Source: Candidatus Dormiibacterota bacterium (GTDB lineage Bacteria > Chloroflexota > Dormibacteria > Aeolococcales > Aeolococcaceae). Taken from it: a stretch of 64,000 nucleotides of DNA. Below are positions 28,555 to 39,657 of this stretch, piece after piece; the first letter of the stretch is position 1, and every line of letters starts with the position of its first letter. The notes beneath the pieces are model-generated. The model was given only the letters and a program-made list of their open reading frames with translations, made no database searches and was not told the origin of the DNA. The translations under genes and the position numbers were made by a program. The stretch is taken from contig OY970355.1 in the NCBI GenBank assembly GCA_963718525.1, positions 1,472,001 to 1,536,000 of the forward strand, read 5' to 3'.

Positions 28555-28632
28555 GCGCCTATAGCTCAGTCCGGATAGAGCGTCTGACTACGGATCAGAA
28601 GGTCGGGGGTTCAAATCCTCCTGGGCGCACCA
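28555..28632 (+). tRNA. tRNA-Arg (ACG), CCA encoded
   Basis: Acceptor stem GCGCCTA/TGGGCGC, D arm AGCTCAG..GGATAGAGC, anticodon stem TCTGA-CTACGGA-TCAGA, T loop GTTCAAATC, ACCA end. Confidence 0.97.
28585..28632 (+). repeat. attL, 3' half of tRNA-Arg
   Basis: 28585-28628 is identical to 39610-39653; the next 4 nt are ACCA here and GCCA at attR. Confidence 0.95.
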
Positions 28633-28638
28633 GCCCTC

Positions 28639-28680
28639 CTCCCGCCAGATCGGGAGCACCGTATAACCCTTCTTGAAGGG
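28639..28680 (+). terminator. Two hairpins directly after the tRNA, possible terminator or processing signal
   Basis: CTCCCG-ccagat-CGGGAG (28639-28656) and CCCTTC-tt-GAAGGG (28667-28680); no clear U-tract. Confidence 0.35.
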
Positions 28681-28683
28681 CAC

Positions 28684-28712
28684 TTGCAAAATGGTTTAGG
28701 GTGCGTTAAACT
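28684..28712 (+). promoter_or_regulatory. Sigma70-type promoter for the integrase
   Basis: TTGCAA-17 nt-TAAACT in an AT-rich patch upstream of int. Confidence 0.55.
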
Positions 28713-28787
28713 TGCAGGGGTTAACCGGTAGATAACACCGACATCCGTCGGAAAGCCGGTGCAAGCCTATAAAAGGGTCTAACCGCT

Positions 28788-29729
28788 GTGGCTGATCTCA
28801 CCCTCGTCCGGCCGGCGGCATCGGATGCCCTGCACCGCCTGGCCGATGACTTCCTCGCCGACAAGCGCGCCAACGGCAAGGCGGCGAAGACCACCGAGAT
28901 GTACCAGTGGTCGCTGGATCGCATCTTCCTGCCCTGGTGCGCCGAAGCCGGGATCACCGAGCCGTCCCAGCTCACCGATCGCGCCCTGGTCCGGTTCGTG
29001 AGCAGCCTGCGCGAGCACGGTGGTCCGAGCGGAGCACCGCTGAGCGACGCCTCCGTCAACTCCTACTCGCGCTCGGTGCGCGCCTTCCTGCACTGGGCGG
29101 AGAAGGAACTCGGCGAGCGCGTCAAGGTGCCGATGAAGAAGCTGCCCCGGCAACTCCTCGAGGTGCTGTCCACCGAGGAGATCCAGCGCATGGAGGACGT
29201 CGCCCGGTCGGAGCGCGACGAACTCCTGGTCCGCACGTTGGCCGACACCGGCATCCGCCTCGGCGAGCTCCTCGGCCTGCGCGCAAAGGATCTGGTGGAG
29301 ACCGACCGAGGCCGCTATCAGCTCCGGGTCGATGGCAAGACCGGCCAGCGCTTGGTCCCATGCACCCCGGCGCTCGCCCGCCGTCTCCGCCGCCACCTCA
29401 GCCGCAGGCATGCCGAGAAGGGCGACAGGATGTTTGTGGGCACCCGACGCAGCGCGCGTACCGGCGAGTACGAACCGCTCACCGCGAACGGCGCCGAGCA
29501 GGCAATCCGTCATCTTGGCAAGGAGGCCGGCATCGGCCGGCGCGTGTACCCGCATTTGTTCCGGCACTCCTACGCGACTCTGATGCTGCGCCGGGGCATG
29601 TCCACGATCCAGTTGCAGTCGATCCTCGGGCATAGCTCGATCACGATGATCGCCCAGGTCTACAGCCACCTCAACACCGACGACGCGTACGACGCCGCGA
29701 TGAAGGCGCTCCTCGGCGGGGACGAGTAG
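28788..29729 (+). CDS. Tyrosine recombinase / integrase
   Basis: TGIRLGEL (R), GKT (K), HLFRH (HxxR), LGH, catalytic Tyr in QVYSH; adjacent to attL. Confidence 0.95.
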   Translation: MADLTLVRPAASDALHRLADDFLADKRANGKAAKTTEMYQWSLDRIFLPWCAEAGITEPSQLTDRALVRFVSSLREHGGPSGAPLSDASVNSYSRSVRAFLHWAEKELGERVKVPMKKLPRQLLEVLSTEEIQRMEDVARSERDELLVRTLADTGIRLGELLGLRAKDLVETDRGRYQLRVDGKTGQRLVPCTPALARRLRRHLSRRHAEKGDRMFVGTRRSARTGEYEPLTANGAEQAIRHLGKEAGIGRRVYPHLFRHSYATLMLRRGMSTIQLQSILGHSSITMIAQVYSHLNTDDAYDAAMKALLGGDE

Positions 29730-29731
29730 CG

Positions 29732-30109
29732 ATGAGCCGTACGGGCATGGGCCACCTCGCGCACCAGGTGAGGGTTCCGCTCCCGGGTTGGATGGATGCA
29801 CCGGGAGATGTCGGGCTGGATGCCGGCATCGCCGAGTTGATACAGAAGCTGTGGAGCCTCGGCATCGAGACCTCGATGAGCTGCGAAGGCGGTCCGGGTG
29901 CTGACGGCGTCATCAACGACGCGTACATCTGGTTCGCTGAGCCCGACGATGCGTGGGACTTTGCGCGGGCGCTCACCGAGGCGAATGGTGGACAGCCGAC
30001 AAAGCTCACCATCAGCGCAGAGAACGACCAGGCGTGCGTGATGTTTGCTTCGTCGCTTATCCCTGCGATTGTGGGCGCCGACCTCGTCCGGCTCGAGCCA
30101 CCGCAGTGA
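29732..30109 (+). CDS. Hypothetical protein (element)
   Basis: 125 aa ORF directly after int; coupled to the next gene (GTGA). Confidence 0.65.
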   Translation: MSRTGMGHLAHQVRVPLPGWMDAPGDVGLDAGIAELIQKLWSLGIETSMSCEGGPGADGVINDAYIWFAEPDDAWDFARALTEANGGQPTKLTISAENDQACVMFASSLIPAIVGADLVRLEPPQ

Positions 30110-30375
30110 GCCGGACCACCCGCATCACCGGCCCGGATGGCCGGGTGACCACGATCAAACAGACGTCGTCGTGCGGCTGCCTCACCGTTCTGGCCGCCGT
30201 TGTCGTTATCTTTGGTCCGGCGGCATGGTTCGGACCCGTCGGCGCTGTCCTCGCCTACACCTTCCTCGGGCTCCTGGTGGTCGGCGCGCTGGCGTACCAG
30301 ATCAGCCAGGCCCGTCGTCGCCCAGTGGTGTCCGCTCCCACGCCGCCGCCCGCACCGCCCCCGGCAGCGCCATGA
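30106..30375 (+). CDS. Small two-TM membrane protein with Pro-rich tail
   Basis: GTG overlaps the upstream TGA; two hydrophobic segments. Confidence 0.6.
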   Translation: MSRTTRITGPDGRVTTIKQTSSCGCLTVLAAVVVIFGPAAWFGPVGAVLAYTFLGLLVVGALAYQISQARRRPVVSAPTPPPAPPPAAP

Positions 30376-30797
30376 GTCGCCAACGCCGCCGCCGCCGAAG
30401 CCCGCATCCGCCTCCGCACGTAGTGCAGCTCCTCCAGGATTCGGACCCGTACCCTATGCGATGGCCGGCGGACGAGACGCGGTGGCCGCGTGGCGGGAAG
30501 CCAGCCCTGATCCACGATGACAAGGTCTTCTGCTGCCGCTGCCATAAGCGGTTGGGCATTCTCCGTTGGTCCGGTGGTCCGGTCCCCCAGCGCGTGTGTG
30601 ACCTGATCCCCGGCTATATCGAGAAGAGGATCAGCATGCCCTCCCTGCAGGCCGTCGTCCGCTTCACCGCGAGGTCTCGTCTGCGGCTGCTCCAAGGGCG
30701 GACCATCACCGAGCCAGCGCTAACGGTGGCGTGTCCCTTCACGGCCGAATGCCCATGCGGCCAACCGCTTGACATCAGTCCTGCTAACTCGGGATAA
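30372..30797 (+). CDS. Hypothetical Cys-containing, possibly Zn-binding protein
   Basis: ATGA overlap; CCRC and CPC motifs; Arg-rich N-terminus. Confidence 0.5.
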   Translation: MSRQRRRRRSPHPPPHVVQLLQDSDPYPMRWPADETRWPRGGKPALIHDDKVFCCRCHKRLGILRWSGGPVPQRVCDLIPGYIEKRISMPSLQAVVRFTARSRLRLLQGRTITEPALTVACPFTAECPCGQPLDISPANSG

Positions 30798-30908
30798 TTT
30801 GACGCAAGACCGACGGTAGGGCGCCCCCGCTGACAACGCGGGCTGGTTTCGCCAAACGTCCAACGTCTCACCGACCCCACGGGGCGCTGAGTTGGAGGAC
30901 GCCTGCCC

Positions 30909-38465: not shown

Positions 38466-38478
38466 CGATGTTTCCCCT

Positions 38479-38601
38479 TTACAGATGAGCGATGAGGAGG
38501 CCGACCCCGGCCGCCACGATGAGGACGACGAGGAGGATCGACAGCGGGATCCACCAGGGAACGAAGCACCCCTCCGTGGGCGGCGGCGCAGTGGATTCCA
38601 T
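38479..38601 (-). CDS. 40-aa single-TM peptide
   Basis: MESTAPPPTEGCFVPWWIPLSILLVVLIVAAGVGLLIAHL; AAGGGGG RBS. Confidence 0.55.
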   Translation of the reverse strand: MESTAPPPTEGCFVPWWIPLSILLVVLIVAAGVGLLIAHL

Positions 38602-38669
38602 GTGTGCCTTCCCCCTTTGTTTGTCGAATTGACGAGACCCCTCTCGGAGCGCCCGAGTTGGTGCCGGTG

Positions 38670-38867
38670 TCAGCGCATAGGCACTGCCCTCCCGATGCAG
38701 GGATGCCTGCCCGCCGTCTCCAGGGGCTGCCAGCAAGCCGCGCAGACCCATCGCGGGGTGAGCAGCGGATAGATCGCCCACGCATGGCTGTCGAAGTTGG
38801 TGAGCGTCGTCGCGGCGAGTCGCTCCGCCGCCATGCGCACGCCGTGGGGTTGGATCAGCTGACCCAT
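38670..38867 (-). CDS. 65-aa protein with CxxC..HxC motif
   Basis: GAGGGG RBS; start overlaps the end of the upstream peptide gene; CAAC...HPC. Confidence 0.4.
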   Translation of the reverse strand: MGQLIQPHGVRMAAERLAATTLTNFDSHAWAIYPLLTPRWVCAACWQPLETAGRHPCIGRAVPMR

Positions 38868-38971
38868 AGCCCCTCGAGGAAGAGCCCGAAGAACACGAGC
38901 ACGATCACCAGGAGCGAGACCCACTCCGGGGCGTCCTCGTCAAAGCGCTCGCCGCCGATCCAATTTGCCAT
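38855..38971 (-). CDS. 38-aa single-TM peptide
   Basis: MANWIGGERFDEDAPEWVSLLVIVLVFFGLFLEGLWVS with GAGGAG RBS; below the ORF-track cutoff. Confidence 0.55.
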   Translation of the reverse strand: MANWIGGERFDEDAPEWVSLLVIVLVFFGLFLEGLWVS

Positions 38972-39077
38972 CCCGATCTCCTCAAACCCCGACACCTCAT
39001 TGGTTCGCGGAGTATGCGCCTAAAAGATTGCTTTAAGTACGCCTTAAGGCAAGTACGTTTTCCACACCGCGGCCGAG

Positions 39078-39278
39078 GTGCCGTACATTCGCCAGGTGGC
39101 GACCCTCCGTGAACTGCGCCTAGCGGCAGAGATGACCCAGCGCGAGGTTGCCGAGGCGGTGGGCGTCTCTCAGGTACAGGTGTCCCGATGGGAGGCGGAG
39201 GGAGGACCAAAGCCGCAACCCGGCAACCGCCGGCGCCTGGCGCGTCTGTTCAAAGTCGCGAAGATTGACTGGAGTTAA
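39078..39278 (+). CDS. Cro/XRE-type HTH regulator
   Basis: LRELRLAAEMTQREVAEAVGVSQVQVSRWE. Confidence 0.85.
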   Translation: MPYIRQVATLRELRLAAEMTQREVAEAVGVSQVQVSRWEAEGGPKPQPGNRRRLARLFKVAKIDWS

Positions 39279-39282
39279 GCTG

Positions 39283-39498
39283 TCACGGGCTCACGGCGCG
39301 CTGCACCGCGTCATCGTCGAGCACCTCGTGGGCGATGATCTGGCGCCACGACCAGCGGGTAAGAACCGGGGAAGCCTCACAGACCCGCTTGAAGCGCTCA
39401 GGGTTGCGACGTTTGGCTGCCGCCAGGAAGCGTGCCACCGCCGCCTCGTGGGCACTGTGGGCAGCCTGGGCGGCGGTGATCTCTTGGACCCCGAGCAC
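39283..39498 (-). CDS. Hypothetical protein (element)
   Basis: 71-aa ORF convergent on the HTH gene. Confidence 0.4.
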   Translation of the reverse strand: MLGVQEITAAQAAHSAHEAAVARFLAAAKRRNPERFKRVCEASPVLTRWSWRQIIAHEVLDDDAVQRAVSP

Positions 39499-39609
39499 GT
39501 CAGGATTCTAGCTTGATTAAGCGTGGTCGGATCAGTGGGGATACAGTCCACAGCTCCGAAGATCAGACGGTCATCCTGAATTGAGAGCTAGTCGCATGGG
39601 CAGGCATGA

Positions 39610-39657
39610 TGACTACGGATCAGAAGGTCGGGGGTTCAAATCCTCCTGGGCGCGCCA
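39610..39657 (+). repeat. attR, duplicated 3' half of tRNA-Arg
   Basis: 44-bp identity to 28585-28628, then GCCA. Confidence 0.95.

Follow-up and report, generated by a model that had tools for sequence, protein, structure and literature searches.

The window analysed here, a 64,000-nucleotide stretch of the genome of an uncultured soil bacterium of the Dormibacterota lineage, contains an integrated element with the following features (coordinates, strand, description, basis).

28555–28632, plus: tRNA-Arg(ACG), the integration target (ARAGORN)
28585–28633: attL, left copy of a 49-nt direct repeat equal to the 3′ part of the tRNA (repeat; empty site in G091)
28788–29729, plus: tyrosine integrase, 313 aa (PF00589, 2.8e-28; phrog_1, 9e-48)
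29732–30109, plus: g2 (PHROG match, phrog_6638, 9e-10)
29953–30375, plus: g3, small membrane protein (homologues in G108, L123 and L125)
30378–30797, plus: g4, Cys-rich ORF, uncertain gene call (plus strand favoured by codon-position GC)
30769–30798, plus: sigma-70-like promoter match TTGACA-18-GATAAT, 11/12, 5′ of the HTH gene (consensus match only)
30909–31286, plus: HTH regulator, Cro/C1-type, HTH_3 (PF01381, 5.7e-6)
31476–32360, plus: Toprim-like replication protein (phrog_6247, 7e-54; Atlas lead PF21180, 0.87)
32357–33559, plus: AAA_25 (RepA/DnaB-like) helicase (PF13481, 1e-7)
33314–33396: candidate origin, 11-mer GAWTCTGCCGC three times, flanking an AT-richer spacer (motif scan)
33556–33861, plus: g8 (ORF call)
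33858–34391, plus: RusA-type Holliday junction resolvase (PF05866, 1.6e-23)
34378–35887, plus: fusion of MuF, prohead serine protease and a C-terminal domain, CTD (PF04233, 1.1e-12; T4 gp21 fold match)
35902–36207, plus: u1, Pro-rich, 101 aa, family-specific (homologues in G108 and G084)
36204–36581, plus: u2, partly helical, 125 aa, family-specific (homologue search)
36578–36796, plus: Cys4 zinc-ribbon protein, 72 aa (conserved in four elements)
about 36882–36921, plus: GC-rich hairpin, then a short T-run, upstream of TerS (folding and conservation)
36991–37830, plus: TerS-position protein, 279 aa, with HGGxSTG zinc-ribbon, long helices and acidic tail (NF041373, 4.8e-7; phrog_3678)
37932–38465, minus: cargo m1, predicted secreted or membrane-anchored (GC3 0.88)
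38479–38781, minus: cargo m2, C-terminal hydrophobic stretch, uncertain gene call (ORF inspection)
39283–39498, minus: m3, conserved 66–71-aa protein adjoining attR (homologues in relatives)
39610–39658: attR, right copy of the 49-nt repeat (repeat)

The two att copies are identical at 48 of 49 positions, derive from the 3′ end of tRNA-Arg(ACG) and are spaced 11,025 bp apart, as an earlier note on this DNA had claimed. In the congener G091 (L100), tRNA-Arg is joined straight to the right flank, with flanks 95% identical, and because of this empty site we placed the junction at 28585–28633; all 42 genomes of the genus have the right flank. The R, K, HxxR, H and Y positions that can be read in the integrase translation are those we take to be the catalytic motifs, in keeping with the integrase described in that note. 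These observations show that the element has inserted site-specifically into tRNA-Arg and that its tyrosine integrase is intact.

In all relatives g3 follows the integrase (71% identity to the G108 copy; L123 and L125 also have it), and its true start probably lies later than 29953. Family searches gave no match for g4, nor did Pfam, PHROG and other family searches for g8. The HTH regulator, the AAA helicase with origin-like repeats and the RusA resolvase, all named in the earlier note, are borne out by their Pfam matches, and RusA is 90% identical to the G108 copy. The 11-mer copies at 33314 and 33329 (direct) and 33386 (inverted) span 83 nt inside the helicase gene and account for half of the window's six matches. 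What had been called a TopoVI-A-like Toprim keeps the support of PHROG 6247, annotated 'DNA topoisomerase', and of the Atlas lead to PF21180; searches by sequence found no Pfam or PDB match for it. Five gene junctions (Toprim/AAA, AAA/g8, g8/RusA, u1/u2 and u2/zinc-ribbon) have a 4-nt overlap of start and stop codons, in agreement with the proposed translational coupling of the rightward run. The Toprim-like protein, the AAA_25 helicase and the iteron cluster show that the element has its own predicted replication module.

The Phage_Mu_F match of the fusion lies in an ORF at 34342–35826. The domain after MuF was modelled by AF2 with pLDDT >90 and has T4 gp21 (5jbl) as its best Foldseek match (E 7.8e-6, TM 0.63–0.65), which confirms, on the model, a prohead-protease fold and upholds the suggested head-protein/protease fusion. 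The frame closes at 35826 in the assembly. Because one base at position 35794 is absent in short-read contigs of two runs relative to the assembly, and because the out-of-frame tail past this position and the C-terminus of the homologue P0003 share 67% identity, the ORF most likely ends at 35887 and not at 35826. The CTD, a short domain behind the protease, is kept in all family members, and its homologues also occur as free 90-aa proteins. MuF and protease are optional and are missing from four of the eight relatives readable at that position (L123, L124, L122 and L127), so the head-maturation factor that the element was thought to supply itself is not core to the family. The forms seen are MuF with protease and CTD, MuF with CTD (P0003), and CTD alone. 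MuF, protease and CTD share 52–66% identity with the portal::MuF and protease::scaffold genes of the phage-type contig L008; sequence comparison suggests that the capsid-related genes of the family are cut-down copies of phage head-assembly genes.

The next three genes, u1, u2 and that of the zinc-ribbon protein, have no counterpart among 80 phage loci examined. Identity of u1 in G108 and G084 is 47–54%; u2 has just two other homologues among 5.8 billion proteins and is present in two copies in G108. The 72-aa ORF had been read as HNH-like, which is not supported: its D-H pair is not kept in three homologues, and no HNH family matched it at E ≤ 0.05. The hairpin seen earlier (dG −38.2, z −2.87) is kept in four of four elements with three compensatory pairs.

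The TerS-position protein, modelled as a zinc-ribbon plus long helices, is 69–100% identical across the element family and belongs to a protein family of 496 relatives, some of which lie directly upstream of TerL (L012, Microcystis phage Mae-JY09 and L130). A fold search gave no match. The assignment as TerS is positional only: the label 'TerS-like' fits the gene position, the size and the N-terminal HGGxSTG zinc-ribbon, and lacks a TerS family match. The N-terminus is 100% identical to that of a fragment whose u1 shares only 46%, and this mosaic implies recent recombination between elements.

The cargo genes, being on the minus strand, converge on TerS and do not form the divergent operon described before. 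For m1, Pfam/PHROG-type searches and PADLOC gave no family match. What lies between TerS and m3 varies: membrane proteins occupy this slot in the window, G083/L123 have a DUF433+PIN pair and G108 a broken TerL, and the slot is empty in a family relative from run X5, whose contig joins 37812 to 39314 and skips 37813–39313. m3 is 82–95% identical in G108, G083 and L123, and an Atlas search with it gave no result.

The element is not a singleton. The genus has no fewer than three further element types, two at tRNA-Leu and one not at a tRNA, and there are also metagenome fragments (L122, L126–L129). In G108 the element sits at tRNA-Leu, where 56-nt repeats enclose 10,427 bp; L123 (the G083 type), a contig of 10,641 nt with tRNA-Leu at its end, lacks MuF and protease; L124 and L125 (the G084 type) overlap by 1,959 nt at 97.8%, and the copies of a 17-nt repeat lie about 10,245 bp from each other. 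Element lengths are about 10.2–11.0 kb, and the late module has a common order: RusA, optional MuF-protease, CTD, u1, u2, zinc-ribbon, hairpin, TerS and variable cargo, then m3 next to attR. The att sites and replication modules differ among types, as do the integrases (313 aa here, 416 aa in G108; that of L125 is 38% identical to that of G108). Six shared genes are under purifying selection, with dN/dS values between window and G108 of 0.31 for RusA, 0.18 for MuF, 0.24 for the protease, 0.22 for u1, 0.47 for u2 and 0.20 for g3.

Among the 19 ORFs, Pfam and PHROG gave no match to capsid, portal, TerL, tail or lysis families, and tblastn of phage TerL, portal and MCP against the window found nothing, in agreement with the earlier note. 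Phages of the type of IMG/VR contig L008 have the order TerS-like, TerL, portal::MuF, protease::scaffold and 574-aa MCP; simple deletions would not turn it into the element order, in which MuF-protease stands before TerS.

We consider it probable that the family consists of PICI-like, helper-dependent phage satellite candidates with a phage-derived hijack module. This reading is supported by the precise insertion and the empty site in a close relative, by the at least three further types of 10.2–11.0 kb with a common late module under purifying selection, and by the swapped integration and replication modules, the fixed cargo hotspot and a gene order unlike that of the phage. The satellite interpretation of the earlier note thus gains comparative support, without its 'undescribed type', its own head-maturation factor as family core and its HNH.

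That the gene set matches no known satellite was overstated, since the genes are laid out, by function, according to the five-component PICI scheme of integrase, regulator, primase-replicase, capsid morphogenesis and small terminase, as given in the consulted part of PMC10085698. The same part defines PICIs as lacking tail, holin and portal, which the element also lacks, and lists HNH and serine protease as occasional in them. Like PICIs such as SaPI1, the element measures about 10–11 kb, has its insertion site beside the integrase, and runs in order from the integrase through the regulator, the replication module with its origin, the morphogenesis genes and the small terminase to the accessory genes and att. 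It differs in that its component proteins have no demonstrated homology to PICI marker families. A Toprim-like protein and AAA_25 form the replicon, the TerS-position protein is of the HGGxSTG family without a TerS Pfam match, the morphogenesis genes are the MuF::protease::CTD fusion, u1 and u2, and the host belongs to an uncultured Dormibacterota lineage.

cfPICIs have head genes of phage origin, a serine protease among them; the element resembles cfPICIs in both respects, with TerL in the relative G108. However, the part of PMC10085698 used here defines cfPICIs by their own capsid, portal, head-tail adaptor/connector and TerL, all absent from the window. Candidate mycobacterial PICIs and phiRv1/phiRv2, as covered in the section of PMC10654092 cited here, are roughly 10 kb, sit at tRNA genes or other sites of high-GC Gram-positive hosts, and are phage-related, too small for phages and putatively mobilised. 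The element is likewise roughly 10 kb, integrated, phage-related and of sub-phage size; the candidates are, in that section, defined by integrase plus major capsid protein gene, whereas the Dormibacterota family has no capsid gene. With P4-like satellites the element shares a size of about 10–11 kb, tRNA integration, a replicon of its own and a hotspot for variable cargo. No PHROG or Pfam match to Sid, Psu, Delta, Epsilon or the alpha primase of P4 was found among the 19 ORFs, and the element has a TerS-position gene, which P4, to our knowledge, lacks.

Several results count against the satellite reading. The closed 3.34-Mb genome of the host has no Phage_capsid, Phage_portal or Terminase_6C match, nor a second MuF or protease copy, and no helper phage was found. 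The helper-type MCP family phrog_13692 occurs in one of the 117 family genomes (G014, flagged unpublished) and in none of the 42 genus genomes; the fusion protein has matches in 2 of the 117, both inside elements themselves. No attP or attB junction, a check proposed in the earlier note, is among the joints listed for the short-read contigs, and read depth in the probable source run is 15 in the element and about 14–16 in the flanks. Pfam TerS families match none of 42 members of the TerS-position family, the CTD matches a phage scaffold weakly (hhalign probability 15%, E 0.0018, 30 columns), complete members come from one genus only, and two scans of IMG/VR with the TerS-position protein found no family member.

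It is unlikely, to our minds, that the family consists of decaying prophage remnants, in which an L008-type temperate phage lost its structural genes stepwise and left copies that are inert or merely excisable. The missing helper and packaging signs, the homology to L008 head genes and the gradient down to CTD alone agree with such decay, and the patchy MuF and protease together with G108, where TerL is split over three frames and TerS is frameshifted, fit its still being under way. Yet the shared genes have dN/dS of 0.18–0.47, att sites and integrases are intact, and the late module is the same in four types, all nearly equal in length (10.2–11.0 kb), whose integration and replication modules are unrelated; nor would decay account for the non-phage gene order, the genes without phage counterparts or the TerS mosaic.

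Equally doubtful is an integrative element with phage-independent transfer, a replicative genomic island or mobilisable element whose phage-derived genes serve, for example, abortive or decoy defence. The integrase, replicon and variable cargo slot, the absence of structural genes and the empty IMG/VR scans would suit it, and phage assembly could be poisoned by a decoy resembling a scaffold or protease even if the element were never transferred; but no relaxase, FtsK/Tra, T4SS or other conjugation or mobilisation family was found in the 19 ORFs, PADLOC defence models matched none of 15 proteins, and without packaging it is difficult to account for the conserved TerS-position gene and the narrow range of sizes. 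A capsid-forming satellite or miniature phage with a capsid protein too divergent for recognition is very improbable despite the protease and MuF here, the cfPICI-like TerL of G108 and several ORFs without family assignment, since these ORFs, besides the minus-strand cargo and the TerS-position protein with its zinc-ribbon and helices, are 72–177 aa, all too short for an HK97-fold capsid protein or a portal, tblastn with the phage-type proteins found nothing, and the protease itself is absent in half of the relatives.

For the helper-dependent satellite that we favour, a superinfecting or induced L008-type helper phage would derepress the element, which would excise and then replicate from its own origin. 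The TerS-position protein would recruit the helper TerL to satellite DNA, and the hairpin 5′ of its gene may tie TerS expression to a helper factor. The CTD would be a remnant of a helper-type protease::scaffold protein and, with u1 and u2, would act on helper procapsid assembly as a competing scaffold, a proposed role parallel to that of CpmB; in the portion of PMC5644958 cited here, CpmB and the helper's scaffold are competitors for a capsid-protein site. In this copy, the MuF domain would also carry the fused protease into the procapsid. The action of CTD, u1 and u2 would result in capsids sized for a genome of roughly 10.5 kb.

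We found that the element is an insertion, present once per genome, at the tRNA-Arg(ACG) gene (28555-28632), which is the single tRNA that ARAGORN detects in the window. The att repeats that the earlier note had placed 11,025 bp apart are there: the 3' 49 nt of the tRNA (attL, 28585-28633) recur at 39610-39658 (attR) with 48/49 identity. The G+C content of the element is 65.6%, that of the flanks 67-68%. The right flank was found in all 42 genomes of the genus, and 11 flank loci were inspected for the tRNA/flank junction. At one of them (L100, from genome G091, 95% identical) tRNA-Arg is joined directly to the right flank, with an overlap that coincides exactly with the att repeat; at two others (L101 and L104) the tRNA lies ~110-130 nt from the flank, and at 6 of the 11 there was no tRNA within the 1.5 kb fetched. 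Two loci (L103 and L102, from G111 and G099) carry a 1.16-kb insert, unrelated to the element (L103 340-1500), between tRNA-Arg and the right flank, in the same place that the element occupies in the window.

In the probable source run, a single 11,032-nt contig covers 28607-39639 at a depth of 15, with the flanks at ~14-16, so this run gives no sign of amplification, and no attP or attB junction was present among the contig joints listed. The contigs of this run differ from the window by three substitutions (30893, 32529, and 33219) and one missing base (35794), and these differences between window and short reads are probably residual assembly errors.

Codon-position G+C delimits an almost unbroken rightward gene run (28788-37830) followed by three minus-strand ORFs. 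Family scans of 19 candidate ORFs gave Pfam matches for five and PHROGs matches for eight, and NCBIfam added one domain.

Assigned genes of the window element
28788-29729, +, tyrosine integrase (PF00589, 2.8e-28), adjoining attL
30909-31286, +, Cro/C1-type HTH protein (HTH_3, Pfam)
31476-32360, +, Toprim-like protein (phrog_6247 'DNA topoisomerase', 7e-54)
32357-33559, +, AAA_25 helicase (Pfam)
33858-34391, +, RusA (1.6e-23)
34342-35826, +, Phage_Mu_F (MuF) domain, then a region matching 'head maturation protease' PHROGs (Pfam, PHROGs)
36991-37830, +, HGGxSTG domain / phrog_3678 (NCBIfam, PHROGs)

The Toprim-like protein had no match in a PDB sequence search, the cargo ORFs and two further ORFs (g4 and g8) had no Pfam match, and m3, a conserved small protein next to attR, had no Atlas match. 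The origin-like repeats reported earlier correspond to three 11-mers in 83 nt inside the helicase gene, and the reported hairpin is present at about 36882-36921. A further hairpin, AT-rich and terminator-like in this 67% G+C genome, lies at 39028-39052 between the minus-strand cargo ORF m2 and m3. The ORF at 36578-36796, which had been called HNH-like, instead encodes a 72-aa Cys4 zinc-ribbon protein; no HNH family matched it at E<=0.05, and its D-H pair occurs only in the window copy, being absent from the homologues in the related G108, G083, and G084 elements described below.

The fusion ORF was modeled with 49 homologues. Its middle domain was predicted with pLDDT > 90, and the best PDB matches in Foldseek were all three chains of gp21, the prohead protease of T4 (E 7.8e-6 to 1.3e-5, TM 0.62-0.65; best entry 5jbl, E 7.8e-6, TM 0.63-0.65), with the herpesvirus assemblins ranking next, whilst a PDB sequence search with the protease profile gave no match. 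His230 and Ser273 are invariant across 10 homologues of the protease and, by analogy, are its putative catalytic residues. The domain thus combines the fold of the prohead serine proteases (S78 / T4 gp21 / assemblin) with a conserved His and Ser, and the fusion of a head protein with a protease that the earlier note had seen is real. Behind the protease lies a short domain (CTD). The base at 35794 is missing from the contig of the source run and from that of a second run, and the 30 out-of-frame codons after it are 67% identical to the C-terminus of a homologue, P0003. The most probable end of the fusion ORF is thus 35887, which leaves 15 nt to the ribosome-binding site of the following gene and probably makes the ORF 20 codons longer than in the assembly. 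The fusion protein is single-copy in its own genome, and among 117 family genomes it has matches in this genome and G108 only.

We then considered the protein at 36991-37830, which had been described as TerS-like. It has 496 relatives at E<=1e-3, mostly of 170-200 aa, and in three phage-like loci (L012, Microcystis phage Mae-JY09, and L130) a relative is the gene immediately before TerL. Of 42 members of this protein family, none matched a TerS family in Pfam, a PDB sequence search with the TerS profile gave a best E of 0.83, and tblastn of the window protein against 50,697 phage records was without a match. Its predicted structure consists of a zinc-ribbon and long helices; a fold search with this model returned no significant PDB match, and its BFVD matches were uncharacterised phage proteins only. 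The assignment of 36991-37830 as TerS is therefore reasonable but positional.

Relatives of the MuF/protease region are encoded on 298 stretches in IMG/VR. Beyond this region, the 80 IMG/VR loci kept share nothing with the element except a weak match to the integrase in L008 and a short one to RusA in L027. In two annotated phage loci, L008 and L012, from which the gene order was taken, a phrog_3678 protein (L012 only) is followed by TerL, a ~900-aa portal::MuF fusion, a ~580-aa protease::scaffold fusion, a major capsid protein of 574-578 aa (phrog_13692), and tail genes. Of these, the element has kept just the MuF end of portal::MuF and, from protease::scaffold, the protease with a short tail. 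The CTD matches the scaffold part of the phage protein weakly (hhalign E 0.0018, 30 columns, probability 15%).

The late module is shared by further element types, two of them (G108 and L123) at tRNA-Leu. The TerS-position profile matched six of the 117 family genomes, the window's own and five more, all of the genus, and one metagenome scan with this protein yielded 12 loci, of which 8 are close, with identities of 69-100%.

Further element types carrying the late module
G108, tRNA-Leu: 10,427 bp between 56-nt repeats
G108, left and replication part: a different 416-aa integrase, cI-like HTH, HTH_17, 543-aa AAA_25 protein
G108, late module: RusA (90% identical to the window's), MuF and protease::CTD as two genes, u1, duplicated u2, Zn-ribbon, frameshifted TerS, TerL in three frames, m3
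L123 (G083 type), 10,641-nt contig ending in tRNA-Leu: left module as in G108
L123, late module: RusA, free 90-aa CTD, u1, u2, Zn-ribbon, TerS, DUF433+PIN pair, m3
L124 and L125 (G084 type), 1,959-nt overlap at 97.8%, not at a tRNA: another replication module, integrase at the far end
L124 and L125, late module: different RusA family (phrog_244), free CTD, u1, u2, Zn-ribbon, TerS, 2.2 kb of unknown cargo

The G084 type is bounded by a 17-nt exact direct repeat (L124 98-114 / L125 4449-4465, ~10,245 bp apart) and is a third integration module and site carrying the same late module. The conserved unit reads RusA, [MuF, protease], CTD, u1 (35902..36207 in the window), u2 (36204..36581), Zn-ribbon, hairpin, TerS, [cargo], m3, with the bracketed parts variable. 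In all four elements compared the hairpin is kept, and 3 of its 13 pairs show compensatory changes. L123 lacks MuF and protease, the CTD-only form is seen in fragments L122 and L127 and the MuF-protease form in fragment L129, and in P0003 the CTD follows MuF within one fusion that has no protease between them. The idea that the element brings its own head-maturation factor does not describe the core of the family, in which MuF and protease are optional. A contig of sequencing run X5 joins 37812 to 39314, that is, TerS straight to m3 without cargo. In the G083 type the slot between TerS and m3 is filled by a DUF433 and PIN-like pair (L119 1484-2666; L123 8970-10149), probably a toxin-antitoxin pair. 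The family is rare in public data, as a search of 5.8 billion proteins gave only two further homologues of u2; the closest, P0199 (63% identity), lies on a 10,930-nt, i.e. element-sized, ENA contig. Fragment L129 has a TerS N-terminus 100% identical to that of the window, a protease 83% identical, and a u1 only 46% identical, a mosaic which points to recombination between family members.

Could these elements be a family of decaying prophage remnants? The patchy distribution of MuF and protease speaks for decay, as do the broken genes of G108, where the TerS-position gene has one frameshift and the stretch homologous to TerL (L004 12600-14560; 46-60% to that of L008) is spread over three frames by two shifts that compensate each other. 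There is no obvious homopolymer at the shift sites, so real decay and assembly error are indistinguishable here. Against it, MuF and protease lie upstream of TerS, an order that is not obtainable by simple prophage deletion. Further, dN/dS between window and G108 is 0.18-0.47 over six genes, values which indicate that the late module is under purifying selection. We consider this explanation unlikely.

It is also improbable, in our judgment, that the element is an island independent of phages or serves as a decoy in defence. Several results speak against the satellite reading: besides the lack of att junctions among the joints listed, no helper phage was identified in the own genome or the family genomes searched, the closed genome itself had no match to PF05065 (Phage_capsid), PF04860 (Phage_portal), or PF17289 (Terminase_6C), and the capsid protein family of the proposed helper type, phrog_13692, occurs in one of the 117 family genomes (G014, which is flagged as unpublished) and in none of the genus. 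Two scans of IMG/VR with the TerS-position protein found no family members. For the 15 cargo and unknown proteins there was no PADLOC match. The four element types, with unrelated backbones, fall within a narrow range of length (11,025, 10,427, about 10,245, and, estimated from L123, about 10.6 kb), and among the indirect hints that packaging constrains the elements this is the strongest. An element with a hidden capsid protein is very unlikely: as noted earlier, no capsid, portal, TerL, tail, or lysis gene was matched in the 19 ORFs (Pfam, PHROGs), and tblastn of the window with the phage-type TerL, portal::MuF, and capsid protein recovered only the MuF and protease parts.

Turning to the satellite reading, we compared the element with known systems. 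The PICI scheme, as outlined in PMC10085698, comprises an integrase, a regulator (AlpA, MerR, or Stl homologues), a primase-replicase, capsid morphogenesis genes, and a small terminase, without tail, holin, or portal; HNH and serine protease are listed there as occasional extras. The window element has its integrase at one end and no tail, holin, portal, or head-tail genes (19 ORFs; tblastn with portal). Its regulator is a Cro/C1-type HTH_3 protein, with no AlpA, MerR, or Stl family match in the window, and G108 and L123 carry a cI-like HTH and an HTH_17 protein. The Toprim-like protein, AAA_25 helicase, and iteron cluster form a functional analogue of the primase-replicase. MuF::protease::CTD, u1, and u2 are putative counterparts of the capsid morphogenesis genes, and they match none of the known cpm, ppi, or rpp genes in PHROGs. 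The TerS-position protein, whose relatives precede TerL in the three loci and of which 42 family members gave no TerS match in Pfam, is a candidate counterpart of the small terminase. Set against the five components and the gene absences, regulator, replication, and small terminase are matched by functional analogues only.

The statement that the gene set fits no known satellite class therefore needs qualification, since the layout is that of the PICI scheme; the element is PICI-like in its probable mode of working rather than by homology. The statement holds for two other classes. Unlike cfPICIs, the window has no major capsid, portal, head-tail adaptor/connector, or TerL of its own, and none of the P4-like families (psu-delta-sid, alpA, epsilon, alpha primase) was matched among the 19 ORFs (Pfam, PHROGs). 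Nor did these ORFs match a relaxase, FtsK/Tra-type translocase, or T4SS Pfam family, as an integrative conjugative or mobilisable element would have. The candidate mycobacterial PICIs are, in PMC10654092, defined by a capsid gene, which is absent from the window element.

What was observed is an element integrated at a tRNA whose integrase is intact and which has a replicon of its own, a late module conserved under purifying selection, and a cargo slot; virion genes are absent. Our preferred reading, which we hold to be somewhat more likely than not, is a PICI-like, helper-dependent satellite. A helper of the L008 type would trigger excision and replication, the TerS-position protein would steer the helper TerL onto satellite DNA, and CTD, u1, and u2 would act on procapsid assembly to give a shell sized for about 10.5 kb; in the window copy, MuF may take the fused protease into the procapsid. 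The role proposed for CTD, u1, and u2 would parallel that of CpmB, which according to PMC5644958 vies with the scaffold of 80alpha for a capsid-protein site. A bolder and less probable reading is a satellite that builds its hijack module from the head genes of its helper: portal::MuF and protease::scaffold would have been whittled down stepwise to the CTD, this scaffold-derived CTD with u1 and u2 would form a competing scaffold that shrinks helper capsids to a capacity of ~10.5 kb, and the window copy would still deliver an active prohead protease into the procapsid of the helper.

For annotation, the analysis replaces 'HNH' by a zinc-ribbon protein, probably extends the end of the fusion ORF, and makes MuF and protease optional parts of the family. 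One conserved late module combined with swapped integration and replication modules leaves a clean candidate hijack set (CTD, u1, u2, Zn-ribbon, and TerS), and the series from MuF with protease and CTD, through MuF with CTD, to CTD alone shows, as few systems do, how helper genes may give rise to a hijack gene. To our knowledge, thorough studies of satellites are confined to a few Proteobacteria and Firmicutes, and our literature search found no phages or satellites of Dormibacterota described in print. If the hijack module was indeed whittled from head genes and CTD, u1, and u2 do act as a competing scaffold, Dormibacterota would gain their first satellite system, and with it a new way of redirecting capsids whose phage ancestry is evident.
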